This document shows positions 20,330 to 64,000 of a stretch of 64,000 nucleotides of DNA, in pieces. This DNA comes from Isurus oxyrinchus (lineage: Eukaryota), in NCBI GenBank assembly GCA_026770705.1, contig JANJGN010000003.1:115382001-115446000 (forward strand). The letters run 5' to 3'. Positions within the stretch are counted from its first letter, which is position 1, and each line of letters starts with the position of its first letter. The notes under the pieces were generated by a model, which ran no database searches, was not told the origin of the DNA, and saw nothing but the letters and a program-made list of their open reading frames with translations. Position numbers and translations under genes: made by a program.

Positions 20330-21190
20330 CCATTACCCAAGTAGTGCAGATTGCGCTCTCTGTTGATAGCACTCCTTTGAGGAGGAAGTAAGGGGCAGAA
20401 GGGAGAGGAGGCCAGGTGTCCCAGTGCAGCTTCCAGCAGAGTGACCTGTGGGAGCAGAGGCAGAGGCACAAGGGACGCAAGGCCAGCAGGTAGTCCAAAG
20501 CGGAAGGGTCTGCAGAAGACACCACTATCCTGCTGCCAGGGTTTACAGGAGGCGATATAACTACCCCAATATGTCCAAGGTGCAATACCAAATGAGGCTC
20601 TACCTCTCTGGGGAGACTGTGACCTCCATTTGCCAGGTGATTGGGCCTGAGATCAGCTCCGACTGTGTGGGTGGACAACCTATGCCAGTGGCTCTGAAGA
20701 TCACAGTGGCCCTCAACTACTATGCCCCTGGCTCTTTCCAGGGGTCAGTGAGCAATCTGTGTGGAGTCTCTCAGCTGCCCACAGTTGCGCCCAGCTGGTG
20801 ACAGGAATTCTGTTCAGGCAGGCACTGACATTTATTCTTTAACGTATGGGCGAGGCCAGCCAGAGGCTTTGCAGTGATTGCTGGGGTCCCCATGTCCAGG
20901 GTGCAATAGACTGCACACATGTGGCCATAAAGGTGCCAGTGGGTCAGCCAGGTGCCTTCCTCAACAGGAAGGGCTTCCACTCCCTGAGCGTGCAGATAGT
21001 GTGTGATCACAGGATGCAGATTCTGCAAGTTTGTGCAAGGTACCCAGGCAGCTCCAAAAGCACCTACATCCTCAGACACTCCCAGGTGCCGGGGCTCTTC
21101 AGTGTTCCAGCCCGACTTATTGAATGGCTGCTGGGCGACAAGGGCTACCCCATTGAAAAGGTGGCTTATAACACCTCTCTGCCACCCAAT
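20330..21190 (+). pseudogene. HARBI1-like DDE transposase, frameshifted and 3'-deleted
   Basis: Motifs GAIDCTHV, NRKGFHSLSVQIVCD, ARYPGS and WLLGDKGYP. Confidence 0.88.
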
Positions 21191-22160
21191 GCCCACCGAG
21201 GTGTTGGCATCTTCGCTGGTGGCTGCTCTGGGTGTGATGCAAGTGCAAATGGAGCCCTGTGGTCCTCTGGCATCAGGAGTGGCCCTTTGGGTTTCCGAGA
21301 GCGAGTCCATGCTGGCAAATCTGGGGGAGAACAAGGACATGTCATTACTTAAAGTCCAAGGTGCACTGTCACTGTGCATCATGGTGTCATCATCTTTCAA
21401 TGATCAATGGGAACTCCAGGTTTGATGCTCCCATCAACGAAGAGACTACACTAGAATGGTTGCACAATCTGAAACTCACATCTCTGTGCACTGTGCTTTT
21501 ACCTTCGTCCCGCACCTCCGCCTCTCCAAACCTGGTTGCACATAGAGCGTGCTGGCTCTCTTGCTCAAGGGCATTCTGCTTGAACCTGGTGAGCAGCAGG
21601 TTGCTTGGGCCTCTGCCTCTACGTGCTTGGTTATGGCTTGTCTTCTCTGAAAGGACAGAGGCACACTCTCTACCTGCGGCACCGTTGCAGCCTGGCCAAC
21701 CCCAGCTGAGGACCACCTCGTAGGACACATCTGAGTTGCAGCCCTCAAGCCGGAAAGCACTCAGTTCAAGAAGCCAGGGCTCACCCACTTGGCCAGCTCC
21801 AGTGTGATTGACAGTTAGTACTCAGGCTCTAGCACTCCTGAGGTCCACAAGGGAATGGTCACACCTTAACACTTTTGCATGCTGACCCATGCCAACATGG
21901 TACTCACTCTTCCTGAGCGCAGCAGGTCGTTAAACCTCTTCTGGCACTGCAACCATGTCATGGTTGCTGACCTGTGCTGCAATCTCCTCCCATGCCTTCT
22001 TTATGAGTTTCGGTGGCCTCCTCCTCCCATCTCTGGGGATAAGGATGTCCCTCCTAGCAGCCACCTCTTCCAAGCGGACCACAAGGCACTCATCCGAAAA
22101 GTGGGAGGCCGAGTGCCCATTCGACCTCTCCTCCCGCCTAGCATCTCCAGCTGCACTTGA
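21190..22160 (-). pseudogene. Myb/SANT-like (NAIF1/MSANTD-type) Harbinger partner gene, intron-containing, degenerate
   Basis: HFSDECLVVRLEEVAARRDILIP...KAWEEIAAQV...KRFNDL, a GTGAGT donor near 21905, and a second exon EKTSHNQARRGRGP. Confidence 0.8.
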
Positions 22161-25460: not shown

Positions 25461-26894
25461 ATCAAGGGCTGGATTTTGTATGTCCCCGCTGGGTGTTTTC
25501 AGTGGGGTTGGGGGCAGACATAAAATAGAGTGGGTGCCCAGCCCAGTATCTTTCATCCACTCCCAATCTAACTCCCATAACACGGTAAGTGGGTGGGCGC
25601 AAGTATCGGCAAACCACCCGCCATATGTAAATAAATAAGAAGGGTTATTGAGCTTGTTAACAAGCCAACTACCCCAATAATATGCTGCCCACACCAAAAA
25701 AAGATTGGTGTGTGCAGTTGGGTGGGAGTTGGCAGCCCATGTGACATTGCACAGTACAATAAGTCTCAAAGCTGCAGTCACTTCATATTCCTTAAAAATA
25801 CAGTTACTACATTCCTTCCCCATTACTTTTTTTTTACAATTTGTATTTACAAGAACAACTACATTCATGACATTACAAATATATACATGGGTTATGAAAT
25901 TATAAGTTCAGTCTCTCAGGTGGTTCCCTGATGCGGGTGGAATGTCATAGCTCCATGACTTTAGAATCTCTTACTGAATCTTAATTTTCTGGAACTGCAG
26001 TAACATCAGGTACTTCTTTAGGTACAGGCAGTTCAGTGTTATCTACTCCCACAGAGATGTCTGGTATGTCTATCCTTGGTTGATCAATCACAACGGGGAC
26101 AACAGGTTCTACAATGGTTACAGGTGGAACATCATCTTGTTGGGGTATCTCCCTTCTTCTCAAATGATCCACGTGTTTGCAGGTGATCCAGCCCACACTT
26201 CTACAATGGCAATGGTATGACAAGGGTCCGGTCACAGAAACTATTACACCAGGTAACCAACTCGATCCACCACCGAAGATTCGTACAAATACTGTTTCAC
26301 CAACAGTAAATTCTCACTCTCGACTATGCAAATCATGAGTCACTTTTTGATTCCCTTGACTGTTCTCTATCTTCCCCTCCACATTGGAAAGTACCAGACT
26401 TAATCTCATACGAAGGTAGCACTTCATAAGTAACTCTGAAGGTGTTGAACCTGTAGTAGTGTTGGGAGTCGTTCTATAGTGAAACAGGAAATATGAAAGT
26501 TTAGTCTCCAATGATCCTTCCGATAATTTTTTCATCCCAACTTCAAAAGTTTCTACTGCTTTCTGGGCCAACCCATTAAACGATGGATGATATGATGCTT
26601 TTACGTGTTTGATACCATTTAGGTTCACGAATCTTTGAAATTCAGCACTAATAAATAGAGTGTTATTGTCTGAGACAATGGGTTCTGGCAATCCACTTTG
26701 GGGTAACCTTTCTATAGTTGCACCTGATATTGGCGATCTAAATTCAGATGTGTCTAACCATTTGGAATGTGCATCAATTATTAGCAGAAACATGGTGCCT
26801 AGAAATGGACCTACATGATCTATATGCAGTTTCGCCCAGGGTCGACCAGGCCATTCCCAAAGATGCAGTGGAGCTGCAACAGGCAACTTCTGTA

Positions 26895-27122
26895 ACTTTT
26901 CCGAGTACAACCCCATTTCCATCTGTTTCAGATGAAGTTACATTGTTTCATAGTTTGTCATTGTGAGATTTGAACTCTTGATACTCTTTCGAGCACAACC
27001 CCATTTCCATCTGTTTCAGATGAAGTTACATTGTTTCATAGTTTGTCACTGTGAGATTTGAACTCTTGATCTTGGGGTTACAAACCCAGTACCATAATCA
27101 CTTGGCTATTTAGGCCAAGCCC
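26895..27122 (-). mobile_element. tRNA-Thr(UGU)-like SINE with a tandem 88-bp tail unit
   Basis: Perfect 14-bp TSD AGGCAACTTCTGTA (26881-26894, 27123-27136). Head TAGCCAAGTG...ACTGGGTTTGTAACCCCAAG...GAGTTCAAATCTC. Direct repeat 26902-26982 / 26990-27070. Confidence 0.8.
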
Positions 27123-30007
27123 AGGCAACTTCTGTAGTTGCTGGCACTGGTGACAGTGTTTAACCATTTTTATTTTATATCACTGTCTACACCTAGCCAC
27201 CAGATATAGCTCCTTGCAAGCATTTTCATTTTGGAAATTCCAGGATATATGCTATGCAACTCAGTTAAGGGTGCCTCCCTTCCTTGTGAAGAAACATTGA
27301 CTTGTGCACCCCGTAACATGATATCATCCTGACTGCTCAATTCATTCGTTCGAGTGAAGGATGGCTTCAATTCTTTGGAGACTGGCTTCTGGGACCATCC
27401 TTTCAATACTTAGTCATGTACTCTAGACAAGACTGGATTGTGGTTCATCCAGTTTCTTATTTGACTCTTGAGGAGTTGGAGCATGTTCAATGCTCTCCTG
27501 CAAAGGAAGGTGACTCAAGGCATCTGTATTAGTTATATGCATCCTTGGTCTGTGCATAAAAGTATATTCATATGCTGATAAAATCAAAGCCCATCTTTGA
27601 ATTCTTGCAGAAGCTATAAGAGGGATAGCTTTTTCTTTGCTGAACAGACCCAAGAGTGGTTTGTGATCAGATACTATAGTAAAGTGTTGGCCAGGTGCAT
27701 TCTGATGGAATTTTTTAACTCCAAAAATAATCGATAATCCTTCTTTCTTCATTTGTGAATAACCCTTCTCTGGCATAGAGATGGTTCTGGATACAAAGTC
27801 TATTGACCTTTCTGAACCATCGTCCAACTTGTGAGATAATACCGCTCCCATGCCATTGGGGCATACGTCGCAAGTTAGCACCAATTCTTTTGTCGGTCGC
27901 TGTGTGCTATCAAGTTCAAAGAGTGCAAGACCTGTTTAACTTTCATGAAGGTTTCTTCTTGAGGTGATTTCCAAGACCAACATTGGTTTTTCTTTAATAA
28001 TGAGTGTAGAGGGGCTAGCACCATTGATAAGTCGGGTAGGAATTGACCATAGTAATCACCCATACCCAAGAATGACTTGAGTTTTGAGATATTTGTAGTT
28101 AAGGGTGCCTCCTTAATATCTTTAACTTTTTCTTCTACTGGGTGTAACCCTTGGGCATCCACCTGGTGGCCCAGGTAAAAGACTTCACTTGCCTGAAAGG
28201 TGCACTTTCCCTTTTTCAAGTGCACTCCTGTTTCCAAGAATTGTTTTAAGGCTCCTCCCAAGTTGCCAAGTGTTCCACTTCTGTTAACCTGGTTATTAGA
28301 ATGTCATCCAGGTAGACCATGACTTGAGGTAGTACTTGCAGCAAACTCTCCATCGTCCTCTGGAAAATCGCGCAGACTGAAGAAGTACCAAAAGGCAGGC
28401 ATGTATATTGATACAATCCTTTGTGTGTGTTTATGTTTACAAATCCTCTGGGTGTATCATCCAGTTCTACCTGCTGATATGCATAACTCATATCTAATTT
28501 AGCGTAAGTTCTTCTCCTGCTAATTTGCCATACAGATCCTCAATCCTGGGATAGGGAACTTGTCCAACTTGGCAGCCTTATTTACTGTTAACTTATAATC
28601 CCCACAAATGCAGATGGTCTGATCCAATTTCAAGACAGGGACTATGGGTGCTGCCCATTCCGAAAATTGAGCCAGCTGAATAAAACCCAGCTTCTCTAAA
28701 TGGTTTAATTCAGTGTAAACCTTCTCTCTCAGGGCATAAAGCATGGGCCTGGCTTTAAAAAATGAGGAGTTGCTTCAGAGTCAACATAGATCTTAACATG
28801 CAGACCCTTGACTTTCCCCAGTTTCTCTTGAAATAGATTGTCATATTTCTTTAGCAACTCTGGCAGTCCTCCAGCTCTCAGCAGGAAACTTTCAGACCAA
28901 TTTTTAATTTATTTTAGCTAATCATGACCTAGAAAGCTTGGTCCTTCACCTTCCACTACAATCACAGGGAGCTGTGCTGTCTGGTGCCTGTAATAAACAC
29001 TTTCACTTGTATGGCTTCACCAGTATACATTTTCAATTTGGCTGAAGTCTGCTCCATATTCAATTGTTGAGTACCCTTATTTAAATATTTAAATGTGTGC
29101 TCCCCCACTACAGTGGCTGATGAACTGGTATCCACTTCCATAATCAAAGGTTTTCCATTGACCTGCAGAGTAACAGTGATTGGCTGTTTTCACTACTTTC
29201 ACATTAAATAGAGAATAAACATCAGAAGTAGTGGTTTCTGGTGCCTTCACATTAGGTACTTCGATCAGTTTAGTTTGCTGCTTGGGAGCCTGTCTCAATC
29301 TTGCTTTACATTGTTTACATGTGCCCTCTTTTATGACAATAATGGCACTCCACCTCTTTAAAATGGCAGGTTTCATGAATATGGATACTTCCACATTGAT
29401 AACAATTCATTTTCAGATTTGCTGTTGAGCTGTTTCCTGTATATTTTTTAACATTTTCAGGTAGCAGGCACTGTCTCCCGCTTCGCAGCTGATTCCCTGG
29501 TTTTTGTGCCACACCCGGCCATCTCTTCCCGCCCCAATGGGAAAATTACTCCATTTTGTACACCCTGTAAGGCCTATGAATCCCATTTGGTGCTTTCCAT
29601 CGCAAACGCTATTTCCAATGCTCTTTTAAAATTGATATTCACTTCGGCTAATAACCATCGTGGAATGGCATCATCCTGCACACCACAGGCCAAACGATCC
29701 CTTAACATTTCATTTAGGGTCTCCCCGAAGTCACAATGTTCAGTTAGCTGTTTCAATGTATGTTGCTATGGTCTTCCCCGGGGCTCTTAATCTCAAATTA
29801 AATTTGAACCTCTGCATGATTATGGAGGGTTTGGGTTGAAAATGACCCTTTATGAAGTTTACTAATTCATTGAATGTCTTCGAATCGGGAGCATTCAGGG
29901 CCCTCAAACTATGGATTAAATTGTAAGTTTTACTCCCATAGATGCTTAGGAGAATTGTTTTCCTTTTTTAATCCACTATAGTTTTGTTTGCTTGGGAAAA
30001 AAGCAAG

Positions 30008-30860
30008 AGAACATAAGAAATAGGAACAGGAGTAGACCATTTGGCCCCTCGAGCCTGCTTCGCCATTCAATAAGATCATGGCTGATCTTCTTGTGTTTCA
30101 ATTTCCACATTCCCATCTAACCCCAATAACTTTTGATTCCCTTGCCTAACAAGAATCTATCTACCTCTGCCTTAAAAATATTCAATGACCCCACCTCCAC
30201 CACCTTCTAAGGCAGAGAGTTCCCAAGTCACACAACCCTCTGAGAGAAAAAAAATCTCCTCATCTCTGTCCTAAAAGGGTGAGCCCTAATTTTAAAACAG
30301 TGCCCCATAGTTCTGGAATTACCCACAAGAGGAAACACCTTTCGGTGTCCACCTTGTCAAGGCCATTCAGGATCTTGTATACTTCAATCAAATTACCCCT
30401 TACTCTTCTAAACTTGGAAACAAGCCCAATCTGTCCAAATCTTTCCTCATAAGACAACCCACTCATTCCAGGTATCAAAGTAGTAAACCTCCTTTGAACT
30501 GCCTCTAACGCATTTACATCCTTCCTTAAATAAGGAGACCAAAACTGCGCACAGTATTCAAGATGCAGCCTCACCAATGCCTGTGTAACTGAAGCATGAC
30601 ATCCTTACTTTTATGCTCAATCCCCCTTGTAATAAAGGATAGCACTCCTTTAGCCTTCTTAATTACTTGCTGTACCTGCATACTAACGTTTTGTGACTTA
30701 TGTACTAGAACACCTAAATCCCTCTGCATCTCAGAATTGTGCAGCCATTCTCCATGTAAGTAATACTCAGTTTTTTTGTTCTTCCTGCCAAAGTGAACGA
30801 CTCTACATTTTCCCACATTAAACTCCATTTGCCAGATCTTTGCCCACTCACTCAATCTAT
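30008..30860 (-). mobile_element. CR1 family B 3' fragment inserted in Gypsy gag
   Basis: RLHLEYCAQFWSP and WQMEFNVGKC motifs. The Gypsy gag resumes on both sides. Confidence 0.9.
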
Positions 30861-31344
30861 CAAGGCATTCTATATATTGACTCCAATCCCCTATGGATGA
30901 GCCAAAGGGGTTAATCCTGCCAAAAAGTGGCATATATTATCCCTTTCTTCTGTTGAAAACAGGATACTTGCATTCAGTGCGTGAGGGACAGCACCGGAAC
31001 CAATTTATCCTCGTTGCTGGTTGTTATACACTGGATTTTCCAGACAGGTTTTTCATAAGGAACAGTGAACTTTACTCACAGGGTTTCAGCAGCAGTTACA
31101 TGCTTCCATCAAGAACCACAACTGGACACAAACACCATCCCTAAGGTTCCCCATGCTTAGAGCTGATTCGTTCACACTGTCACATGATACTACACAGTAC
31201 AATAAGTCTTAAAACTACAGTCATTACATTCCTTAAAGCTACAGATGCTACATTCCTTAGAGTTATAGTTACTACTATAAAAGCTACTACTACTACTAAA
31301 GCTACAGTGACTACATTCCTTAAAGCTACAGTTACTGCAAGAAG

Positions 31345-38114: not shown

Positions 38115-40769
38115 TTAGGCTTCACTGGAACAATGCAGCAAGCCAAGGACAGACATGTGGGCAAGAGAGCAGGGTGGAGTGTTAAAATGGCAAGCCACAG
38201 GGAGGTTTGGGTCATTCTTGTGGACAGACCGCAGGTGTTCTGCAAAGCGGTCGCCCAGTTTACGTTTGGTCTCTCCAATGTAGAGGAGACCACATTGGGA
38301 GCAACGAATGCAGTAGACTAAGTTGGGGGAAATGCAAGTGAAATGCTGCTTCACTTGAAAGGAGTGTTTGGGCCCTTGGACGGTGAGGAGAGAGGAAGTG
38401 AAGGGGCAGGTGTTACATCTTTTGCGTGGGCATGGGGTGGTGCCATAGGAGGGGGTTGAGGAGTAGGGGGTGATGGAGGAGTGGACCAGGGTGTCCTGGA
38501 GGGAGCGATCCCTATGGAATGCTGATAAGGGGGGTGAAGGGAAGATGTGTTTGGTGGTTGCATCATGCTGGAGTTGGCGGAAATGGCGGAGGATGATGAT
38601 CCTTTGAATGCGGAGGCTGGTGGGGTGATAAGTGAGGACAAGGGGGACCCTATCATGTTTCTGGGAGGGAGGAGAAGGCCTGAGGGCGGATGCGCGGGAG
38701 ATGGGCCGGACACGGTTGAGAGCCCTGTCAACGACCGTGGGTGGAAAACCTCGGTTAAGGAAGAAGGAGGACATGTCAGAGGAACCGTTTTTGAAGGTAG
38801 CATCATCGGAACAGATGCAACGAAGGCGAAGGAACTGGGAGAATGGGATGGAGTCCTTACAGGAAGCGGGGTGTGAGGAGATGTAGTCGAGGTAGCTGTT
38901 GGAGTCGGTAGGTTTGTAATGGATATTGGTGGACAGTCTATCACCAGAGATTGAGACAGAGAGGTCAAGGAAGGGAAGGGAAGTGTCAGAGATGGACCAC
39001 GTGAAAATGATGGAGGGGTGGAGATTGGAAGCAAAATTAATAAATTTTTCCAAGTCCCGACGAGAGCATGAAGCGGCACCGAAGTAATCATCGATGTACC
39101 GGAGAAAAAGTTGTGGAAGGGGGCCGGAGTAGGACTGGAACAAGGAATGTTCCACATACCCCATAAAGAGACAGGCATAGCTGGGGCCCATGCGGGTACC
39201 CATAGCCACACCTTTTATTTGGAGGAAGTGAGAGGAGTTGAAGGAGAAATTGTTCAACGTGAGAACAAGTTCAGCCAGACGGAGGAGAGTAGTGGTGGAT
39301 GGGGATTGTTCGGGCCTCTGTTCGAGGAAGAAGCTAAGGGCCCTCAGACCATCCTGGTAGGGGATGGAGGTGTAGAGGGATTGGACGTTCATGGTGAAGA
39401 GGAAGCAGTTGGGGCCAGGGAACTGGAAATTGTTGATGTGATGTAAGGTGTCAGAGGAATCACGGATGTAGGTGGGAAGGGACTGGACAAGGGGAGAGAG
39501 AAGGGAGTCAAGATAACGAGAAATGAGTTCTGTGGGGCAGGAGCAAGCTGAGACGATCGGTCTACCGGGGCAGTTCTGTTTGTGGATTTTGGGTAGGAGA
39601 TAGAAGCGGGCCGTCCGAGGTTGGGCGACTATCAGGTTGGAAGCTGTGGGAGGGAGATCCCCAGAGGAGATGAGGTCAGTGACAGTCCTGGAAACAATGG
39701 CTTGATGTTCAGTGGTGGGGTCATGGTCCAGGGAGAGGTAGGAGGAAGTGTCGGCGAGTTGACACTCAGCCTCCGCGAGGTAGAGGTCAGTGCGCCAGAC
39801 AACAACAGCACCACCCTTGTCAGCGGGTTTGATGACAATGTCAGGGTTGGACCTGAGAGAATGGAGTGCAGTAAGTTCAGAGAGAGACAGGTTAGAATGG
39901 GTGAGAGGAGCAGAGAAATTGAGACGACTAATGTCGCGCCGACAGTTCTCAATGAAAAGATCAAGAGAAGGTAAGAATCCAGAGGGAGGGGTCCAGGTGG
40001 AGGGAGAATATTGGAGATGGGTAAAAGGATCTGTTGAACTGGGAGAGGACTCCTGCCCAAAGAAGTGAGACCGGAGATGAAGACGGTGAAAGAAGAGTTC
40101 AGTATCATGCCGAGCCCGAAATTCATTGAGGTGAGGGTGTAAGGGTATGAAACTAAGTCCTTTGCTGAGCACTGAACATTCAGCATCAGAGAGGGGAAGG
40201 TCAGGGGGTATAGTGAATACACGGCTGGGGCTGGGATTGGAAGATGGGGTGGGGACGGAGGGACAGGCTGGGGTGGAGGGTCCTAGATGGGTGTTGGTGT
40301 CGATGAGTTGTTGGAGCTTGCGTTCCTTAGCAGTTGAGAGAAAGAGAAAAAGTTTCTTGTTGAGGCGTCGGATGAGCCGAAGGATAAAATGAAACTGGGG
40401 GCACGCGCAGCTTTGAAAAAGGGTACGGCGGTGCTGCTGGAGGGAGAGGTCGAGTGTGTTCATATGGCGGCGCATGGCACTGAGTGTGGATTTCAAAATG
40501 TGACGGGAACAGCAGTCTGAGAAACGTTTTATGTCCCGGAGATACCGGTAATCCTGGGTGGGTTCGAAAGATGAGGGGTGGAATTTCAGTGGAAATCCAC
40601 GTGGGGTAAGTCGGAGACGGAGACAGTCACTGAGAAAGGAGATATGGCTGTGAAACACCTTGTCAAACACCAGGAGGGAAATGGAAAGCAAAGAAGGTGA
40701 ACAAGGCAACAGAGAGATACGGAAATCTTGTCGCAGAGAGGAACAGAACTTCTTCAAGGAGGTAGGCAT
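38115..40769 (-). CDS. Penelope-like RT plus GIY-YIG endonuclease, C-terminus cut by a premature TAA
   Basis: KPADKGG, LPKIHK, GRPIVS, GVAMGTRMGPSYA, YIDD, Cys motif CPRKRCNTC, VYCIRC..C.LLYIGET. First ATG is at 40769 (the ORF track starts at TTG 40793). Confidence 0.93.
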   Translation of the reverse strand: MPTSLKKFCSSLRQDFRISLLPCSPSLLSISLLVFDKVFHSHISFLSDCLRLRLTPRGFPLKFHPSSFEPTQDYRYLRDIKRFSDCCSRHILKSTLSAMRRHMNTLDLSLQQHRRTLFQSCACPQFHFILRLIRRLNKKLFLFLSTAKERKLQQLIDTNTHLGPSTPACPSVPTPSSNPSPSRVFTIPPDLPLSDAECSVLSKGLSFIPLHPHLNEFRARHDTELFFHRLHLRSHFFGQESSPSSTDPFTHLQYSPSTWTPPSGFLPSLDLFIENCRRDISRLNFSAPLTHSNLSLSELTALHSLRSNPDIVIKPADKGGAVVVWRTDLYLAEAECQLADTSSYLSLDHDPTTEHQAIVSRTVTDLISSGDLPPTASNLIVAQPRTARFYLLPKIHKQNCPGRPIVSACSCPTELISRYLDSLLSPLVQSLPTYIRDSSDTLHHINNFQFPGPNCFLFTMNVQSLYTSIPYQDGLRALSFFLEQRPEQSPSTTTLLRLAELVLTLNNFSFNSSHFLQIKGVAMGTRMGPSYACLFMGYVEHSLFQSYSGPLPQLFLRYIDDYFGAASCSRRDLEKFINFASNLHPSIIFTWSISDTSLPFLDLSVSISGDRLSTNIHYKPTDSNSYLDYISSHPASCKDSIPFSQFLRLRCICSDDATFKNGSSDMSSFFLNRGFPPTVVDRALNRVRPISRASALRPSPPSQKHDRVPLVLTYHPTSLRIQRIIILRHFRQLQHDATTKHIFPSPPLSAFHRDRSLQDTLVHSSITPYSSTPSYGTTPCPRKRCNTCPFTSSLLTVQGPKHSFQVKQHFTCISPNLVYCIRCSQCGLLYIGETKRKLGDRFAEHLRSVHKNDPNLPVACHFNTPPCSLAHMSVLGLLHCSSEA

Positions 40770-40904
40770 TTCTTGAAGAGCAGTGGCAGTCAATTAAACA
40801 CAGAGATAAAAACAAAGAAAACTGCGGATGCTGGAAATCCAAAACAAAAACAGAATTACCTGGAAAAACTCAGCAGGTCTGGCAGCATCGGCGGAGAAGA
40901 AAAG

Positions 40905-48244: not shown

Positions 48245-51200
48245 GTGGAGCTCAAGGGTGTTAGAGTCTGAGCGCAAACTGTCAATGATGCCGGAGCTGG
48301 CCAAGGGGTTAAGCCCAGGCTGCTTGGACTGAATGCATTGTGGCTCGAGGGCCATAACTCGGATGTGCCCTGCAAGGTGGGGTTGGCCAGGCTGCAATGG
48401 CGCTGCAGGTAGAGAGTGGATTAATCAATGCTCCTCTGTGCTTTCAGTAGATGACAAGCCATAAAAACATTGAGAGGTCGGAGACAGGCAAAGGCCCTCG
48501 AAAGCCCCTAATATTGAACAAGTTTGAGCAAGATGCCTTGGAGCTGGAATGCCACCACCCACCTCATTCAACTGGCCACGGAGAGGCGGGGGTGTCAGAC
48601 GAAGGTAAGAATGCAGTGCACAGAGGTGACAGTTTCAGATGGTGCAAACATTCTTCTGTAGTCTCATCATTGATGGGAGCCTCGAAACTGGAGTCTCCAT
48701 TAATCATTGAAAGATGATGGCACCATGATGCAGATCTCCATTGACTCACCAGGGTGCCTGGCATGCACAGCGACAGTGTGATTACTTTAACTAATGACAT
48801 GTTGATACTCTCCCTTTGATTCGCCAGCACGCATTCGCTCTCAGGGCCCTGAAGAGCCATCCCTGGGATTCAGCTGCACCTGCATCACACCCTTTCTCTG
48901 AACCCTAAGCAGATACCAGCACCTCAGTGGGCATTAAATCTTCGGCTAGAATGGCGGTGCACAACAGTGAGAGCAGTTCACACTCGCTTGAGGTGCAGGC
49001 AGAGGCAGAGTGCCCAGAGTGCTGGTAATTGGAGGACTGCTGCAGACCAGGACCATGTTGAGTAAAGGCAGATGATGGGCCTCTGGAGTCGTCCATTAGG
49101 CGGCACATGCTGGATGTCCAGTAGGATGTGCGGGAGGATTTGACAGAGATCCATGAGGGTATGTGTGCCATGGTCTCTGTTGTGGAGGGCATGCAGAGCA
49201 CAACCACATTGACCCTCATGGCCGAGCACACAGCCTCCTCCAAGAAGAGGGTGGTGACTTTCATGGAGAGGCAGCACCAGGGACATAATTAGGGGTTCCT
49301 GGGGTTGCGGGCAGACCTGCAAGCCATCACACAGGCAATGACCTCAGTTGATGAGCGCCAGTGTGGGAGATGGATGAGGCACCCAGTATCCAAGCTAGGC
49401 GCCCATCCATTAATGGTGAGCAAGGAGGACCACAGCGACCTCACGTTGGCACACGAGCTGCTTGTCATCTCTGCGGGCTCCTCTCAGGGCACTCTGGATG
49501 ACGGCAGCAGCTCCTCCTCCCCTCTGCCAGTGGCTGTGGCATCTGATGAGGCTGTGATGACTGGGGAGATGCCAGCCGTGGCACTGGCCACTCCCTCCCA
49601 GGCGGGGCCAGCACAGGCTCCACGGGCCAGAGGACGACCGCCAAGGTCATCAAGGCCAACAGGACAGCAGAGTGAGCAGGTTGTCTCCAGTGCCGCTGCC
49701 AGCTATGGGAGGGGGCACCAAGACATAGCCCTCGTAAATGTAAGTTTAAGGCACCATGAGAACAAGAGGGGCTGGTTATGGGTGATCTTCTTCTGCAATA
49801 TTTTACTCATATGTTTACTAGTGTGAAAATGAACACCAGAGATGGTAATGTTAATTTGCTTTGAGTGTGAAAATTACATAAATTTTGTTTTTGTCATAAT
49901 GTTCTGAGTATGCTTCACCTTTTTTCCCTGGTGCAGGGTTTGTCAGTATGTAATGTTGGATGTGAGTGGCTCTAGACTTTATTGTACAGGCACTGGGTGG
50001 ACTTTGGGTTCAAATGAAAGGGTCATTTCAAACATCTGGGATGGAGGCGGCAGCCCCAGCAGGAGGTGGAAGCAGATCTTTGGCAATCTAATGAAGAAGC
50101 GTTGGTGTCCCTGCCTCCCTGGAGGTTACAGAGGTCTGCCTCCACGCCCTCAGCTTTCCCCTCAATGTGCACCTCTTCTGGCACACTACTTGATTCATCC
50201 TCTGTGGCCTGTGGAGCGGCCTCAAGATCCTTTTCCACCAGTGGGTCCTCCCTTGCCATTGCCAGATTGTGGAGGTCACAGCATGCAACCACTATCAGTG
50301 ACACCTACTCTGGGGGGTATTGTGGTGCACCTCCGAATGGTCTAGGTATTAGAAGTGCACCTTCAGAAGACCTATGGTTCTCTCTATCACCGTCCTTGTG
50401 GAAGCATGACTCCAATTATAACATTGCTCTGCCTCTGTTCTTGGGTGGATGAGAGGCGTCATAAGCCACCTTTTCAACAAATAGCCCTTGTCACTCAGCA
50501 CCCATCCATCTAGTTGGGCTGGAGCAGTGAATAGCCTCGGCACCTGGGAGTGTCTCAGGATACAAGCATCATGGGAGCTGCCAGGGTACCTTACACAGAC
50601 TTGCAGAATCTGGGTCTTGTGGTCACACACTATCTGCACGTTCATGAAGTGGAAGCTCTTCCTGTTGATGAAGGCACCCGACTCACCCACTGGCACTTTG
50701 ATGGCCACATGTCTGCAGTTGATTGCACCCTGGACGCGGGGGAATCCTGAAATCACTTCAGATCCTTTGGCTCGCCCAGCCTGGCTGGCCTCATCCATCT
50801 GGAAATGAATAAATGTCATTACCGCCTGAACAGAGCTTCTGTCACCAGCTTGATGCTACTGTGGACAGCTGGTTTAGACAATCCACAAAGATTCTCCACT
50901 GACTCCTGGAAAGAACTGGAGACATGGAAGTTGAGGGTCACTGTGACCTTCAGGGCAACTGGCATGGGGTTTCCACCCATACAGTTGGAGCTGATTTCAG
51001 GTACCCAATCATCTCACAAATGGAGGTCAATGTCTCCCTTCAGAGATGGAGCCTCCTTCGGCACTGCATCTCAGACATGTTGAGGTAGCAGCATCACTGC
51101 CTGTAAACTCTGGCAGCAGGCTAATGGTGTCTTCTGCGGCCCCTTCTGCCTTGGACTACCTGTTGGCTCTGCGCCCCTAGTGCCTGTGCCTCTCCTCCCA

Positions 51201-54138: not shown

Positions 54139-56995
54139 TAATAACATAGTATACCTCATTAAGTTTCTTTTTAATCAATAAGGTCAAGTAAATCTTGCCT
54201 TCAGTGGTTCACCTTGCATGGGTAACAGAATCAGTGCCATATTCCCAGGTTTATAAGTGTGTTCTTCAGCTGTGTTTTCTCATTACCTGTTGAAAAATCT
54301 TAAGTTGTTCTCAAGCAACTGTATATGCCTTTGACAGTCTGTCTTGGAATTAGGGCACAAGACCCAAAAGAGTAATTCCCTTTCCTGATCCAGAAAGTTC
54401 TCGTTAATAAATTTAAATGGTCCTCTTACTTTGTGCCCATAAGCTAACTCAAAGGGACTGAAACATAATTGTTGATTAATTTGGTGCATCCCAAATTGCA
54501 AGGAATTTCTCTATCCCAATCCTCTGGATATTCAAGACAATAAGCTTCGATTACAGTATTTAAGTTTTGATGTCATCTTTCCAATGCCCCTTGTGGCTGT
54601 AGGTGATATAAGTTTTACTCTTAAACTGCATTTAGTTTCCTGGAATACCTTTGACATAAAATTTGACCCTTGGTCAGATTGAACTTCTCTGGGCAATCCA
54701 CACCTAGTGAAAGACTGAATTAACTCTTCAATTACTGCACTTATCTTTCTAAATGGAATGGCCTCTGGCAACCTCACAGACAAATCCACAATAGTAAAAA
54801 GATATTGATACCCTGTTTTAGTTTTAGATAAGGGTCCAACACAATCCAGTAGAACCCTACTAAATGGTTCATCGAAAACTGGGATAGGAATCAATGGAAG
54901 TGGTTTACTTGATAGCTGGGGTTTTCCAACCATTTGACATGTGTGATACATCTTGCAGAAGTCAACCACACCCCTGTGCAATCCGGCCAGTAAAAACTTT
55001 CATTATTTTAACCTGAGACTTTCTTATTCCATTGGAATCTCATTTGCAGTCCTTAAAATTTCTCTGCGATAACCAGAAGGGACAATAATTTGATAGACTG
55101 TAGTCCATTTCTCATCCACTGGTCTTTGAGGAGGTCTCCATTTCCTCATTAATATATCATTGTTTAGGTAATAACATTCAGGAACCTTTTCTGATTCATC
55201 CTCAGAATACAGTGTTTGAGACAATCCCCACAAATTAGGACTTACCTGCTGGATTTCAATTAAAAATGTCTGCTACATATGTCAGCCTCTTTCCTTTCAA
55301 GGTTTTTATCCTCATGCAGTTTCCAAAAAAAAGTCCTGGATAATCAAATACCTGAATCATCATCCCTTTTGATTGCTTTTGCCTCAACTTGTCTCACCTT
55401 ATGAGCCTGAGACATCATCACTGCACAACCTGGGAACAATCCACAATGTTCCTCCTGCAAAATCTCAGTTTCCCTCACATCAACTGGCTCTCTTGCAACT
55501 CTTGGAGATAATACCATATCACCTGCCAAATCATTCCCAATAAAAAAATCTATCCCTCCAATAGGCAACATTGGAACAACTGCTACGTAGCAACTCAATG
55601 TGCCAAGCCAATTTGATACTTAACTTTTTATAAGGGAAAAGGTTCATACCTTCCAAGAGTATCCTCTACCAGTACCTTATGTTTCACCAGACTATGTGGA
55701 AGATAAGCATATCATCAGCCACTGAATAACTGAACTGATCCAGTGTATCTCAAAATATGAATTTGTTTACTTATTTTGTTTCAGGAATAAGAGAATACTA
55801 CTCCCTTGGGAATAAAACATTTATAATCTTAAGTAACATGTCTCACTGCATCAGTACATAAAGAAGTATTTCCTTGACTATTCCACCACTGTAGCAGGTT
55901 CTGAGGGACACCTTGCAATTGGACGTTTACTACTCATTTCTTTTACCGATACAGTCTTTTCTGAAGACTCCTTTGACATTCCTCCTGCTGCAACTAGTTT
56001 TCCTTTAAGTTGCCAGCAACTTGATTTCACATGCCTGGTTTACTGCAATGAAAACATACAGATTTCTTCACATCATCTATATCTTCAATATTACCAGCCT
56101 TATTAACTATAATAGGCTCAGCCTTCTCCTTAAAGCCAGAATCTTTTCCAAATTTGTGATTCCTCAAGATTCCTTATGGGTTCATTAATGGAGATTTAAC
56201 ACTCCCTAATTGTCTATCTGTGATATCATATCCTCGGGTAAAACCTCAGCTTCTCTTAATTTAGAAATTTTCTAGTCCTCCAGATGAAGCCTAATAGCTA
56301 CTGGAATAATTCCTAAATTCCTAACTTCTTCTGGGGTCATGAATCCTCTCACATTTTCAATATTTCCTTGAACGATTCCACCAGTCCCACAACATCTCTT
56401 TCTCTCGAGCATATTCTACAAAGGCCTGGTTCAGTTTTTTCATGACAGTGTGAAAACTTAACTGATATGCCTTGAGAACCAACTCGTATGCATTAAGAGC
56501 TGTATTTTTAACTGTCTCATAATCTGAAGATTGCTCTCCTGAATGACTTGCATGAACATCCATCACCTTACCAACTTTGCAAAATCAAAGCCTATGTCCC
56601 CTTGGGCCACTGTAACTGTATAGCAGTCTTCTCAAATGATGTAGAATATCTTTCTGACCTTCAGTAAATTTAGGCACTAAGTGAATATCTTTTGCAAAAT
56701 GAAGATTCGAACCACCGTCTAAACCACCAGTTCTTCCTCACCATGTAAACAGTATCTTCCTTATTCCAGGGCAAACTGTCTCTCTCTCCTTTCCCTTTGA
56801 GCTTCTAATTCAAGGTTTTTAAGTTCCATTTGCTGTGCTGTTTTCTCCCTTGCTGCCATTTTCCTATCTCTTTCTCATTCAAGCTTTTTTAAGTTCTCTT
56901 TCTTTTCCCTTTTCTTTTAATTCAAGCTGCTTCATCTCCAACTGAATCCTAAACCAACTCAAGCTGTGATTTATCCGGATTAACAGTTTCTATTT

Positions 56996-59912
56996 TATAG
57001 TAATTGTAGCTTTAAAGAATGTAGTGACTGTAGCTTTGAGACTTATTGCGCTGTATACTATCATGTGACAGTGTGAATGAATCAGCTCTAAGCCCGGGGG
57101 ACCTTAAAGTGGGAGTTCTTCTTCTAGATGTGGAGCTTGATGGAAGATGTAACCACTGCTGCAGCCTGTAAGTAAAATATGATGTTTCTAAATGAGAAAT
57201 CTGCCTCAAGTCCATAACAAACTGGCGATGAACACTGGGTCCGGCATTGTTCCTTACCCAGCAACCATGAGAATCTTGTTTAAACAGAAGAACAGGTAGG
57301 TATGTCACACTTTGATGGTATTGACCCCTTCAAACCATCCACAGAGGATTGGTGTCAATATATAGAATGCCTCGGGTTCTATTTCCAGGCAACCAAAATA
57401 ATGGGGAGGAAAAGAGGAGAGCAATTCTTCTAAGTGTTTGTGGGACTAAAGCCTATAATTTAATCCAAAGTTTGATGGCCCTGAATGCCCATGATTTGAA
57501 GACCTTCAGTGAATTGGTTAAGGGACACTTTCAACCCAAAACCTCAGTCACCATGCAGAGGTTCAGGTTTAATTCAAGGGTTAGAGCCTTGGGGAAGACC
57601 ATTGCTACATATGTGGTGAAATTAAAACAACTGACTGAACACTGTGATTTTGGGGAGACCCTAAGTGATATGCTCAGGGATAATTTGGTCTGTGGTGTGC
57701 AAGATGATGTCATTGAACAACAATGATTAGCTGAAGTTAACCTCAATTTTAAAAAGGCATTAGAAATAGCGCTCTCGATGGAAAGCGCTGAATAAGACAT
57801 ACAGGTTATACAAGGTGCTGTTTTCCAGTTGGGGTGTGAATGGACAGCCAGGTGTGGCACAAAAAGCCAGGGCTCCACCACAAAGCAGGACACAGTCCCC
57901 GCTACCCGGAAATTTTAAATAAATACAGGAAAAAGCTCAGCAGCAAATCTGAAAATGAATTGTTACCGATATGGAAGGATATCATACTGCTGAAACTTGC
58001 CCTTTTAAAAAGGTGGAGTGGTATTTTTGCCATTAAAGAGGGCACATACTTAAGCATTGTAAAGCAAGATTGAGACAGACTCCCAAGCAGCAGACTAAGT
58101 TAATTGAAGTACACAATGTGGAAGAAGCAAAAACCACCAATTCTGGTATTTACTCCCTATTTAATGTAAAAGTAGGGAAGACAGAGCCAATCACTGTTAC
58201 TCTGCAGGTAAATGGAAAACGTTTAATGAAGGATTGATGCTTCAACTACTGTAGTGGGAGAGCACACCTTCAAGTATTTAAACAAGGGTACTCAACAACT
58301 GAATTTGGAGCAGACTTCAACCAAATTGAAAAGATACGCTGGTGAAGCTATCCAATTGAAGGTATTACCACTGTACCTGTTTATTATAAGCAGCAAACAG
58401 TTCCCTGTCATGGTAGTGGAAGGCGAAGGACCAAGCCTTCTAGGTTGCAATCGGTTGAGGGTAATTTCAAAAGGAAGCTGGAAGAGTTCCTGAATTGGGA
58501 AAACAACAAGACAAAGTACTTCAGAATGAGCCTGGAGAGTTCAAGGACCTTAGCAGGGTGCGAAAGGAGTGTGTAGTCATTCAGCAACCTGAGGAAATGA
58601 AGACTGTCTTAAACAGCAGCAGGAAAGAACAGCAGAAGAGACTCAAGGAGACTGCTGAATTACAGAATTCAAGATGAAGCGAGTGAGCTCCGTAAAGAAA
58701 AGGAAACCTGTTGAAAGACCTTCACACATGACAAAGACCCCTCAGTCAAAGTTTCTACCTCTGGAAAATTACGAAGGGAAGCAAAAAGAATTTAACGTCG
58801 CCCTGAACAAACTGAAGAATCAGTTGGGAGAGAAGACGCAGCAATTTTCAAGGTTTCAGGAGGAAGTCAACAGATAGAAGAAGGAGACAGAAGAGCTAAA
58901 GAATCAGCTGAATGGAACAAAAGAGGCATCAGAAGGAATAGTTGTGGAGCTTTCCAAAATGCAAGTGGGTGTTGAAGCCATGGGCAGCTCAACCCCTGAA
59001 CGGAACCAAGATGAGATTTCGCCTGAAAGAAGTCTGGCCACCTGTGAAGTCAAAATGATGATGAGACTAAACTCTGTGGTAGACTGAAGAAGACAAGATG
59101 GATGATGGTTCAGAAAAGACAATGAACAATGACCCACACTACTACAGGTTCACCACCTTCAGAGTTACTTATGAAGCGACACCTTTGAATGAGATTAAGC
59201 CTGGTACTTCCCAATTTAGAGGGAAAGATGGAGAAAAGTCAAGGGAATCAAAAAGAGACTCATGATTTGCATAGTCGAGAGCAAGAATTTACTGTTGGTA
59301 AAGCAGTGTACGTACGAAAATTCGGTGGTGGATCCAGTAGGTTACCTGGTGTAATAGTTTCTTTGACCAGACCCTTGTCGTACCACATAGAAGTGTGATC
59401 ACTCACAAACACGTGGATCATTTGAAAAGAAGGGAGATACCCCAACAAAATGATGTTCCACCTATAACCATTGTAGAACCCGCGGCCCCTGTTGAAATTG
59501 TTCAACTAAGGATAGACATACCAGATGCCTCTGTTGGAGTAGATAACGCTGAGCTGCCTGTGCCTAAAGAGGTACCTGATGTTGCTACAATTCTAGATAA
59601 TGTGGATCCTGTAAGAGATTTGAAAGCCATGGTAGATGTTCTTATAAATACAAATTGTACAAAAATTTTAAAGGGGGAGGAATGTCGTAATTGTAGCTTT
59701 AATGAATATAGTGACTGTAGCTTTAAGACTTATTGTGGTCTATAGTATCATGTGACAAAGTGAGTGAATCAGCTCCAAGCAAAGGGAACCTTAGAGTGGG
59801 AGTTCTTCTCCTAGTTGTTGGAGCTTGATGGAAGCATATAACTGCTGCTGCAGCCTATAAATAAAGTTCAATGCTTCTATGAGAAACCTGTCTGGAAAAT
59901 AAAATCCAAACA
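56996..59912 (+). mobile_element. G-A family Gypsy derivative with RT/RH/IN core replaced by coiled-coil cargo
   Basis: LTRs 56996-57219 and 59683 to about 59912, PBS TGGCGATGA, PPT 59670-59682. Gag/protease and IN C-terminus are colinear with 25735-31340. Confidence 0.88.
58466..59130 (+). pseudogene. Coiled-coil cargo ORF remnant, UACA-like
   Basis: KFLPLENYEGKQKEFNVALNKLKNQLGEKTQQFSRFQEEVNR*KKETEELKNQL. Homologous to 63250-63800. Confidence 0.6.
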
Positions 59913-61124
59913 TTCTTCAAATTCCAAATGCTGTGCTACTGCATTGACTATCTCTGCTTTTTTAGCCATTGCTTTTATCTCTAACTTCACCTCTCCTAGT
60001 AATTCTATTAACCTCATCTTTGTTAATTGTTGTAAATTACTCAGGGATAAATTTTCCCTCTTCAAGAAAGTCTTAGCAGCTGACACAGCCATCCTGCTGT
60101 TCACTTAGTATAGTGAAATTCACTGTGAGCTCCTATCAACCTAAAGTTTAGCAAATTCCCGCATACCCATTATAATCTGTGAATTCATGATCCCACTCGA
60201 GACCCTAATTGTGTGGATCCCAGTAAGAAGTATTTTTTAATCCAAAAGCCCAGGTATTTACTAAAATAATGAAGCCACAAGGTCTGTGATTTAAAACAAA
60301 ATAATTTTATTTTACAAAATCAAAGAACATGAATACTAATAACTACACTCTATCTTAAATAGACAGTTTTTAAAGATATAAAATGAACACAGTTACCTAT
60401 ACTCTAAAACAAACTTAACTTAAATTTACTTCTACACTCATTTGACTTACACCCCAAAAAACTCAAGTCAGATACTCATCAGAAATTGGAAGGTTAACCA
60501 TTTGGCATAAGTGCTGTTTCAAAGATTCATTTTGGGCCTTCCACTTACTTCTGGCAAAGTTGTCCCTTCAAATCTCCTCCAACCATCCCATTGTTGCAGA
60601 CTCCCAGTTCAGCACAGGTGTTCCTAAAGTAGTAAGCATAGCCACCTTGGATCAAAACTCCCCTGGTTCTAAGGTTCTTTAGCTCTGGAGTTTTCAACCT
60701 AAAATGTTTCTCTCTCTCCCTCTCTCTCTCTTTTCTCAGCTCTGCTATCCCAGAAGTCCAGATCACTACTAGGAGTCTTCAGTTAACAGAATGTTTGAAC
60801 TTTTTAAATCAACACTGAATTTCAACTGAACTCGGCTCAAAAATTATGTTTCCTACAACAAGCTTCTACAACAGGCTTTAAAAAATTAAAACCCTGGTTG
60901 AGACCAGACCACACCTACAATCTACCCGCCCTTAAAATAAACTTCTTGTTGACCCTTTTTCTATTGTTTATCTCCCAGGCAACTTGGTCACATGAACAGC
61001 TGCTGGAGACAAAGTGCTTTACCAGAAATCATCTCCTAGAGAAACCTAATTCTCAAAGGGACCATCACTCCAACATAAAATATAGGTAATTCCCTTAAAG
61101 CATATGGGTCATCACAATTGTTAT

Positions 61125-61290: not shown

Positions 61291-62581
61291 TCTATGCTCC
61301 AACTCTAAAGCAGAAAACCTTTGTTGGGAACAAATGAGGACGAATCCAAGTTGTAGTGGTTTCTGCATAATATGGTTATCCCCTGACTAGAGATCTAATG
61401 GGTTTCTAAATTGGTCCCAATCCAAATTTTTGGGCTGTTATTTTCTAGACATAGTTTTTGCAAACCTCAAATTATGGAAGTATTGGAATCATTATTCTAA
61501 CTGAGGAACACTTGCATAAACTCTTTTGTGTTATTACCAACCAAGGAATTCCAAACTAAAATGTATGAAAATGAATGCACAGTGTATAAGTAATGAAAAA
61601 GAAAGAGGCATTGATTATGAAATCATTACATAATAACTGAATCACAGCTGCAGCTATGATAGGATTGACAATAAAATGTATCTAGATATATAATTCTAGG
61701 AGAACTAGAGAAGGAAGAAAGGGAGGTGAGGCAGGGCATTAATTGGAATCAGCCTTAATGTTCTACAATTTAAAGATTTAAAGATTGGAGGAGTGGTCCA
61801 AATTGAGCTGAGAAATGGCATGGATTTGCTTTTTCTACTGCAATATGCAATGCATCTACATTACTGAGTTTCTTTTGGACCAGCCATGGCTGCACCAACT
61901 AGCTCTTTTTTAGTTTTGTTTTCTGTAAATATCATTTGTATTCACCTCATGTCCGATGGCAGAATCATCATCTGATTAAGACAGTGAGAAATGCCATTTC
62001 CAAAGTATTATGCTCCAGGTGCAGTCTCCAGGTCTTTTATTCTGAATGATTATAATATGTTTGGTGGCTTTCTTTCCTCAGAGTCTATCATAGCCTACCA
62101 TTCCACTGCAGATGAGCACCTGAAAAATATGATACACAGTCAATAGACCCAAGCTGCACTGCAGACTGCAGCTTGCTTAAGGTCACATTGAGCTCAGCAA
62201 TAAGACACCTCTACACATCCTTGTATGTGACTTCAATCCCAAACTACTTACTCTGTAATATTAGACGAACACAGGCAGTAAGAATGCCTTTTTTCCAACA
62301 CAAAAAAGACTTAAGCTGGGGTGTAAAACGTGACTAGTTATCCTGTACCAATTGCAAAATCTAAATGGTGTGAAATTACCTGCCTTCCACCTTTCAGTTT
62401 CAGTCTGTTTGATCTAAAATCCTAAACTGACTCCCAAGTTATTCTTTAGTGTCAGTTTGGTTGGAAATCACTTTGCATCCATGCAGAAGGAGAAACACAA
62501 TGGCAGACTAAGTTAATTCTTAGATTATTGTCTGTTATGTCTTACCATGGGGTCACTTTATCTGTCAGCAGACTGGTTGAT

Positions 62582-64000
62582 TACAATATACTGCAGACGC
62601 AGAGACCAATATGAAATGAAGCACGTACTATTTATTTACACAAACAACAGAGCACTAACATGATGTGTTCTTCTCCAGCCAGACCCTACTCTAACCTAAC
62701 ATTAACATGGTAGCCCGTGCTACACAGCCATTGGGTCCTACAGTCACGAAGTCAATTTGCTCACATTCTTTTAAAGGTGTATTACACCTCAGATTACCAC
62801 ATCCCTCCCCCTTTACTTGAAAGTACATTTTACAATATGTTAACTATTTACATAAATTAACCATTTACAAATTCAGTCTCTCAGGAGGCTTTTTCAAATG
62901 TGTCGACCATCATAGTTCTACAACTTTGGATGGTTTATCTGAGGCCTCTCTCTCAGGAGGAACCGGTAAGTTTGCCTCTTCAATTCTCTCAGATTCAACG
63001 GATCCTACAGGTACTTCCAAAGCAAGAGGAGTTCCTTCTACATGTGGTGTAGACTCCAACAGGAATGTTTTCACCCTCTTTCAGGCCCCATCGCATGTAC
63101 TCCTGCTGCCCCTCCCTCCAAGTTCAAGAATATGAAGGGCAACTGTGAGGAAAATTTTGAGAATCAGGATATTGGGCAAGGCTAAATTTAACACAGAATG
63201 ATCAGCTGCCTGCTGTGTGAAAAAAAAATTCGGGGCCTTGATAGTAATTTCACTTTCTCTTCCTACGTGTCTTCTTTTGATGGGCTTTCTTCTTGGCAGC
63301 ACTGACTTTAGTCTCGGCTTCCTCTTCAACTTCCCTATTGGCCAGACTGGGCTCAGGTGTGAGCTCAACTTGAGTGAACTCGGCAGTTGAGTCTTCCAGC
63401 ATTTCCTCATCTGTCAGCTCCTTTGAAAAGTCAGGGATCTTTAGTTTTAAGGCTTCTTGGTTTTCATGTAACTGATTCTTCAGCTCTTACATTTCTTTTT
63501 TATATTTGTTAGTTGTTTCCTGGAGAATTAAGTATTGTTGCGCTTTCTCAGCTAATTTATTCTTCATCTCAGCCAGAAACATGCTAAATTCTTTCTGTTC
63601 TTCCTCATATATTTTTAGTGGTACAAATTGGAATCTGAGGGAATCTTGCAATATGTGAAAGTCCTTCAGCAGATTCTCTCTTTCTTTTTGGAGGTTACTG
63701 ATTTCAGCTCGAAATCTGTCCTGAAGCATCAGCTCTACAAGTTCCTTTTATTGAGTATTTACATGCTCCTTTCCCAAACAGCAATATTTCCTGCTCCTGA
63801 TTGAGATTGCAGTTATACCCTTTACACTTATGTCTTCCCCAGTATCTGTCTTTAGTCTAGTATCCGAGTTTTCCAGCTTTAATGAGTGGCCTCCTCCATT
63901 CAGATAAACGTGTGTTCCCCTATGACTGTCGTGGATGTGCCTGTATCCACCTCCATTCGAATGAGTTTTCTGTTGACTTCTACTGTCACGTAGATTAGCT
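62582..64000 (-). mobile_element. Second Gypsy derivative with a different LTR: protease, coiled-coil cargo, PPT, 3' LTR (runs off the window)
   Basis: Minus strand reads RMEVDTGTSTTVIGEHTF. PPT AAAGGGGAGGGA, then an LTR starting TGTGGT at 62801. The LTR end is approximate. Confidence 0.8.
63250..63800 (-). pseudogene. Coiled-coil cargo ORF remnant, UACA-like, with a basic C-terminal tail
   Basis: QFVPLKIYEEEQKEFSMFLAEMKNKLAEKAQQYLILQETTNKYKKEM*ELKNQL...KKKAHQKKTRRKRK*. Confidence 0.6.

Follow-up and report, generated by a model that had tools for sequence, protein, structure and literature searches.

Nonautonomous Gypsy Retrotransposons of Isurus oxyrinchus with a Captured Fragment of Host UACA behind Gag and Protease

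Architecture of Families A and B

The window analyzed here is a stretch of 64,000 nucleotides of the Isurus oxyrinchus genome (assembly GCA_026770705.1, contig JANJGN010000003.1; C3:115382001-115446000), which holds a family A element at 57–59.9 kb and a family B element from 62.5 kb on (Table 1). Both families are ~3-kb nonautonomous Ty3/Gypsy retrotransposons (element length ~2.9–3.6 kb) with a single Gag-protease-cargo frame each. Paired LTRs with TG...CA ends, a PBS-like sequence, and a polypurine tract are present, and no reverse transcriptase (RT), RNase H, or integrase core was found in the A or B elements. The CCHC knuckle and the catalytic DTG are kept in most copies, the protease matching the Pfam aspartic protease at an E value of about 2e-5, under the curated cut-off. 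The two families are colinear, with gaps of 3, 29, and 8 codons.

A search of the 4.98-Gb genome with the B peptide returned identities of 61–80% apart from the self match in the best 150 scored of 10,169 candidates, and a search with the A cargo DNA had 40 scored of 4,085 candidates, neither candidate total being a copy number. When the noncargo 3′ region of B was used as the query, the Gag-protease-cargo region was present in 28 of 29 other loci.

Several variants were noted among the copies. Arg replaces Gly in the C-terminal motif of the B protease in 15 copies (Gly in 36), and in 8 family A copies the catalytic Asp-Thr is followed by Ser; such copies may represent subfamilies whose protease is impaired. 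One B copy (L031) has a 208-nt near-palindromic repeat inserted at positions equivalent to window 64835-65080, and similar insertions recur in many loci, giving repeated junk peptides on translation. A further decayed Gypsy element, similar to integrase in part, occupies 54535-54999 (minus strand) and about 55000-56990 and 59910-60900, and element A appears to be nested inside it.

Table 1. Features of the two nonautonomous elements and of the family A helper lineage in the window
Feature	Position	Strand	Remarks
autA, decayed autonomous Gypsy (Gag-PR-RT-RNase H-IN), helper lineage of A	25740..31260	-	LINE insertion near 30010-30855
Family A 5′ LTR	56996..57219 (start approximate)	+	followed by PBS-like sequence
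Family A Gag and protease	57380..58465	+	76% identical to helper in window
Diverged protease-RT linker remnant	58466..58558	+	travels with cargo
Family A UACA-derived cargo	58559..59005	+	450-nt deletion joins host exon nt 1511-1862 to 2304-2414
Family A linker, basic tail, stop	59006..59125	+	
Family A integrase 3′ remnant, polypurine tract, 3′ LTR	59126..59893	+	LTR from 59683
Family B 3′ LTR (TG...CA)	62533..62801	-	LTR pair 87% identical
Family B polypurine tract	62802..62814	-	
pol 3′-end remnant, common to B and helper autB	62815..63075	-	
B-specific post-stop segment	63076..63249 (bounds approximate)	-	no match to C, A, helpers, UACA, or ninein
Basic tail	63253..63306	-	out of the family C frame; dN/dS compatible with neutrality
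Linker	63307..63372	-	joins UACA to ninein in family C; source not found
Second UACA-derived piece	63373..63486	-	from host exon nt ~2304-2414; in B acidic and mostly disordered by prediction
First UACA-derived piece	63476..63747	-	host exon nt 1626-1862 matches DNA 63712-63476; predicted single helix, heptad core kept
Family B aspartic protease, broken in window copy	63814..63999	-	private 119-nt end deletion; Gag runs on beyond window
Family B 5′ LTR	just beyond window, equivalent to 65301-65592	-	then PBS-like TGGCGAC

The Family B Copy Compared with Family A

The sequence-only reading had proposed that the B copy carries the same cargo as the A copy. The likeness is real at both levels: the peptide of minus-strand 63253-63747 aligns with that of 58749-59051 at 45.5% identity over 101 residues (E = 1.7e-18), with 62% identity of the DNA along 442 bases. 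No shuffle of the coiled coil reached the local score of 205: the highest was 68 among 2000 plain shuffles and 95 among 2000 that preserve the heptads, and paralog and ninein coils used as controls gave 59–99.

The same reading had the B protease running into the cargo in one frame interrupted by one stop. Sister copies do read through, so that the statement stands for the family, but in the window copy indels at 63935-63907 shift the catalytic part of the protease to another frame, and stops occur twice, at 63748-63750 and 63487-63489. The end of the protease and the junction are missing through a private 119-nt deletion at 63814/63813, and the loss of 1 nt at 63775/63774, relative to a natural sister copy, brings the frame back; the single open frame of this copy is an accident of compensating private deletions. 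The basic tail said to end both peptides is common to the two families, but the A tail quoted is out of frame in the window copy through a private 1-nt deletion. The family A cargo, placed at 58466-59130, is UACA-derived from ~58559, the part before this looking like a pol linker remnant.

Origin of the Cargo

A host origin of the cargo was the point missing from the earlier reading. A profile built from 29 natural open cargo copies was searched against 1.84 billion proteins and matched ray UACA (E = 3.7e-22). The matches comprised eight proteins: UACA of a ray, an arowana, and a lizard, three shark gene models (two from basking shark, one from catshark), and two unnamed proteins. The shark gene models look like element copies, the catshark model joining UACA to the linker and ninein-like sequence. 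A single cargo copy searched among longer proteins had no match, UACA being seen only with the profile. No Pfam family reached its cut-off for the cargo, no solved structure matched it, atlas searches gave generic coiled coils with low recognition, and Rfam had no match within window 55–64 kb.

The genome's own UACA exon (contig C25; 911 open codons, 63% identical to ray UACA) aligns with A at 72–78% DNA identity (nt ~1510-1862 plus 2304-2414), with B at 65% (nt 1626-1862), and with a third LTR family, C, at 78–87%. The cargo scores are 224 and 171 to host UACA versus 73–96 to two paralog-like exons and 59–99 to ninein. On these matches the cargo of A and B is a captured fragment of host UACA. 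The long open exons of UACA paralog-like genes, L136 (C1) and L139 (C12), served as controls only.

Family C (~4.2–4.4 kb) has its own LTR and a frame of about 860 codons, in which longer UACA pieces are followed by a 25-codon linker, a ninein piece, and a TPR piece. The ninein piece covers residues about 1178-1266 (E = 1.6e-29; the genome's own ninein is 78% identical to that of horn shark), and the TPR piece is over the Pfam cut-off. In all four C copies examined, seven to eight consecutive host TPR exons are joined without introns, and the piece therefore came from mRNA; the UACA and ninein pieces each lie within one exon, so splicing cannot be read from them. No protease was detected in any of 13 family C loci. 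Two further C-chassis elements, L141 and L142, have UACA, ninein, and TPR pieces that differ in order and extent.

Relative to the host UACA exon there are deletions of 282, 126, and 450 nt. One element ~45 kb before the window (L168; C3:115331400-115337900) is an intermediate between C and A/B, because it combines the C chassis with the A/B deletion (451 nt measured) and still has ninein and TPR. The A/B cargo descends from the UACA-ninein-TPR chimera of family C via nested in-frame deletions. A 1-nt deletion common to A and B, relative to five C-type copies, changes the frame of the last codons, which then read as the basic tail and a stop; the tail sequence is already basic in the shifted frame of C. 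No source was found for the 25-codon linker or the B post-stop segment in these comparisons. Overlaps were seen at internal deletions.

Helper Lineages and Recombination

Among 30 loci with the 3′ end of B, 17 carry the cargo, 11 have integrase and no cargo, and two have neither. The integrase-bearing loci are ~4.7-kb autonomous elements (autB), that is, an autonomous partner with the Gypsy order PR-RT-RH-IN shares its ends with the nonautonomous family. The median K2P distance between paired LTRs is 0.15 in B (14 pairs), 0.16 in A (16), and 0.17 in autB (6), values not turned into years for lack of a calibrated rate. Candidate target-site duplications of 5 bp flank 4 of the 11 elements with both ends parsed (one exact, three with one mismatch; two B and two autB); the window B copy has none.

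The LTRs of A and B are unrelated, as the earlier reading had it, the A LTR occurring in 0/18 B loci and the B LTR in 0/18 A loci, and the proteases are diverged. Net K2P distances of the protease are 0.026 between A and autA, 0.003 between B and autB, 0.515 between A and B, and 0.469 between autA and autB; those of the cargo are 0.37 between A and B and 0.18, 0.47, and 0.09 from the host to A, B, and C, respectively. In the protease tree (five rows per group) each family pairs with its own helper (support 100/100), and an A+B clade was rejected (p-AU 3e-5). Plain co-descent of A and B was ruled out by these distances and by the rejected clade. The cargo tree is poorly resolved, and the common origin of the A/B cargo rests on the shared junctions.

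In LTR, Gag, and most of the protease, A and B each match their own autonomous helper, from which it follows that the module was moved by recombination whose crossovers lie inside the protease. In B the identity to the helper drops about 25 codons before the junction marker, and in A 10–15 codons before it. The shared segment past the crossover is closer to the autA linker than to the autB linker, which suggests a direction of module transfer between A and B.

Selection on the Cargo

The alignments comprised 28 of 30 A loci and 61 B copies after duplicates were dropped; 27 of the B copies were chosen regardless of cargo and 34 by cargo protein similarity, a choice that lowers the within-family benchmark and so works against the contrast. 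Read over majority-occupied columns, the frame has no stop in 567 codons of B and, apart from one Gag column, none in 602 codons of A. Net A–B dN/dS of the cargo is 0.43 [0.27–0.72] compared with 0.84–0.85 within families at kappa 3, and 0.18 compared with 0.58–0.59 at kappa 1, the transition bias kappa being assumed, not fitted. The value is thus not near 1. By part, it is 0.36 [0.20–0.60] for the first UACA piece, 0.65 [0.24–1.39] for the second (not significant), and 0.68 [0.29–1.55] for the tail, an interval that includes 1. The cargo is under weaker constraint than the protease (0.13) or Gag plus protease (0.26).

Net A–B distances at codon positions 1, 2, and 3 are 0.42, 0.27, and 0.83, a position 2/3 ratio of 0.33 [0.19–0.54]. 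Nonsynonymous and synonymous changes number 79:53 between families versus 1555:661 per-copy events (p about 0.014), a modest contrast. The branch to B accounts for most of the change (dN 0.29, dS 0.76), and dS from host to B exceeds 1. Of the internal indels shared in the Gag-to-UACA part, all seven that were examined have lengths divisible by three, compared with 92/376 private deletions, although long deletions in coil repeats are perhaps biased to stay in frame. The probability of no stop under neutrality is 0.008–0.014. We place weight on the per-copy and codon-position tests, since the singleton benchmark (p = 8e-6) and shared-versus-singleton contrasts are inflated by recurrent mutation.

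The UACA part of the cargo evolved under purifying selection between A and B, and the decay of copies within each family is nearly neutral. This selection is established for A and B, not for family C. The sequence-only reading had offered as alternatives that the cargo was maintained as protein or recombined between LTR families; dN/dS, codon positions, and indels favor the former, protease distances, helper matches, and tree tests the latter, and both hold together. Contigs of three presumed-RNA runs and one other cover pieces of family B and not the locus flank, and have no bearing on expression; translation of the chimeric frame is suggested indirectly by the selection.

Coil Structure and Basic Tail

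With the heptad register picked on the host sequence, 10 of 12 core residues are identical between host and B compared with 35/78 elsewhere (p = 0.027), and a stop-free neutral simulation gave this core identity with P = 0.01–0.04. A test of conservativeness was not significant (p = 0.058), and 10 of 12 noncore hydrophobic residues stay hydrophobic too. AlphaFold predicts one helix over residues 2-124 (block pLDDT mostly 89–98), a disordered acidic stretch, and a weak terminal helix; a homodimer prediction scored 0.19 (mark 0.32), which counts neither for nor against dimerization. The tail, rich in Lys and Arg in B, is a shared frameshift product with no detectable selection, and its earlier description as a nuclear localization signal (NLS) is without support.

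Proposed Mechanism and Rival Explanations

The reading we prefer, which on balance we consider probable, is that these are nonautonomous Gypsy elements whose Gag-protease frame runs into a UACA piece in the place of pol, that the module is under protein-level selection and moved between helpers, and that an oligomerizing coil likely replaces Pol self-association. The history starts from the joined UACA, ninein, and TPR pieces seen in family C, presumably captured by template switching onto co-packaged mRNA. The nested in-frame deletions connect C through L168 to A and B, the shared 1-nt deletion ending the frame with the basic tail. The A and B chassis match two different autonomous families, with the crossovers observed in the protease C-terminus, presumably by exchange of co-packaged helper and parasite RNA, and purifying selection acted on the first UACA piece and the heptad core. 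We are highly confident of the history up to this point. To the last step we give about even chances: the element RNA would yield a Gag-protease-coil protein, the coil would aid multimerization and protease pairing, the RNA would be packaged mainly in cis, and RT and integrase would come from the helper.

Selection acts on replicating lineages rather than inserted copies, so the protein, from retroelement biology, likely served its own RNA, and a coil with a kept core where RT would sit fits an oligomerization role. That the coil oligomerizes in the place of pol is our best guess at its function. In HIV-1, a leucine zipper behind the protease raises multimerization and cleavage, with premature cleavage and fewer particles (PMC3291649), and RT-RT contact aids protease activation (PMC11998509). 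Protease pairing cannot have been the job of the coil in family C, where no protease is detectable.

The coil may instead be tolerated filler, selection keeping only a soluble, helical, stop-free tail with which Gag-protease is stable and the RNA escapes decay, coiled coils folding at any length. Its repeated shortening, which took the cargo of about 860 codons in C below 200 codons in A and B, would fit, as would the acidic second piece predicted to be disordered in B, the apparent interchangeability of coiled-coil donors, and family C lacking a protease. Yet, frequent as deletions are, the part of the UACA exon at nt ~1680-1830 was kept in C, L168, A, B, and L141, and heptad-core identity exceeds that of the stop-free neutral simulation; we regard filler as rather unlikely. 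Less probable still is an interaction of the captured coils with host partners (UACA, TPR, ninein, or complexes of these) by which particles would be guided to the nuclear pore or centrosome, the tail acting as an NLS. In its favor, TPR is a nuclear-basket, ninein a centrosomal, and UACA a nuclear/cytoskeletal protein, and the B tail is basic. Outside the core, however, B retains just 35/78 host residues, A and B lost ninein and TPR, and the tail is a frameshift by-product whose dN/dS interval spans neutrality.

Passive baggage, or camouflage against silencing at the RNA level without protein function, agrees with the near-neutral decay of copies within families, and captured host sequence is proposed as camouflage for plant elements (PMC13317346). 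It is already largely refuted, and we consider it very improbable: between A and B third codon positions changed ~3 times faster than second ones, dS from host to B is above 1, shared indels stay in frame where most private ones do not, and the frame would rarely have remained free of stops under neutrality. A host gene domesticated from one copy could account for open fragments in two basking-shark gene models, but it is between families of high copy number that the signal is seen, stops are numerous among the private variants, and among the matches listed none of 149 other places exceeds 80% identity to the window peptide; we give this almost no credence.

Comparison with Known Systems

No published description of these families was found in the literature searched, most subscription journals, supplements, Repbase, and Dfam being outside its scope. 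They belong to a known kind, the gene-capturing nonautonomous LTR element, and are new within it; the earlier suggestion of an undescribed class was too strong. Acutely transforming retroviruses are helper-dependent and carry a host fragment in the place of pol as a gag-onc fusion, but their fragments are signaling domains and they are not known to be inherited as large families.

Bs1 of maize is likewise an LTR element with three host gene fragments joined into a translated chimeric frame (PMC13317346); it differs in being a plant element with enzyme fragments, whereas the families described here are vertebrate and high-copy, every donor is a coiled-coil protein, and the fragment lies behind the protease and moved between helpers. 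In LTR-mediated retroposition in animals (PMC5131818), mRNA pieces also replace internal frames by template switching, may combine several genes, and may spread further as nonautonomous elements, but the cases are young and 14/21 older ones have loss-of-function changes, in contrast to the frame kept here over large divergence by selection in the replicating lineage. CrocERV29 (KIT ligand) and CrocERV31 (nectin3) are further vertebrate LTR elements with captured host mRNA and purifying selection on the captured frame; they are retroviral, with 6–9 copies reported, and carry the insert between pol and env or in place of env, not as a Gag-protease fusion in place of pol (PMC4299795). The engineered HIV-1 construct has the same layout, its coil directly behind the protease in the place of RT, but it is laboratory-made and lowers particle yield (PMC3291649), and serves as an analogy of mechanism only.

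Captured host fragments are usually seen either as baggage of short duration or as a source of new host genes. The fragment described here was kept as protein across the large divergence between families and was transferred to a new chassis, and a second clade did likewise with a different coil, which makes it testable what nonautonomous LTR elements need a protein of their own for. The copies also yield false UACA, TPR, and ninein gene models, as in at least 150 matches to the TPR domain in this genome and in "uncharacterized" shark proteins in NCBI.

Recurrence in Other Gypsy Clades and Other Elements of the Window

A Pfam search of the genome for the TPR domain gave at least 150 scored matches of 1,646 candidates. 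Twelve of the scored matches (L156-L167, e.g., L159:1881-6931) form family D, of a Gypsy clade apart from A/B, in which a different protease is followed in frame by joined TPR exons, open for >2.4 kb and with no UACA. This second Gypsy clade captured TPR behind its own protease. In another locus (L171, 391-1826) a Gag knuckle region and DTG protease precede another ninein piece. We tentatively propose, at somewhat less than even chances, that replacement of pol by a captured host coil is a recurrent adaptive route, in which the coil would take over from RT as self-association module, would have been taken up repeatedly, from mRNAs of UACA, ninein, and TPR, and would be portable between helper lineages. 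Three loci (L170, L171, and L172) are relatives of the C chassis with another ninein piece.

The window contains two further kinds of element. At 38115-40793 on the minus strand lies an 892-codon open frame with no Pfam match at 1e-4, whose motifs suggest a Penelope-type reverse transcriptase ending in GIY-YIG; its flanking repeats are 96–98% identical, and the element looks young. Remnants of DDE_Tnp_4 (Harbinger-type) transposase occur at 20843-21349 on the plus strand and 50352-50855 on the minus strand, in stretches that are 78% identical over 1 kb.
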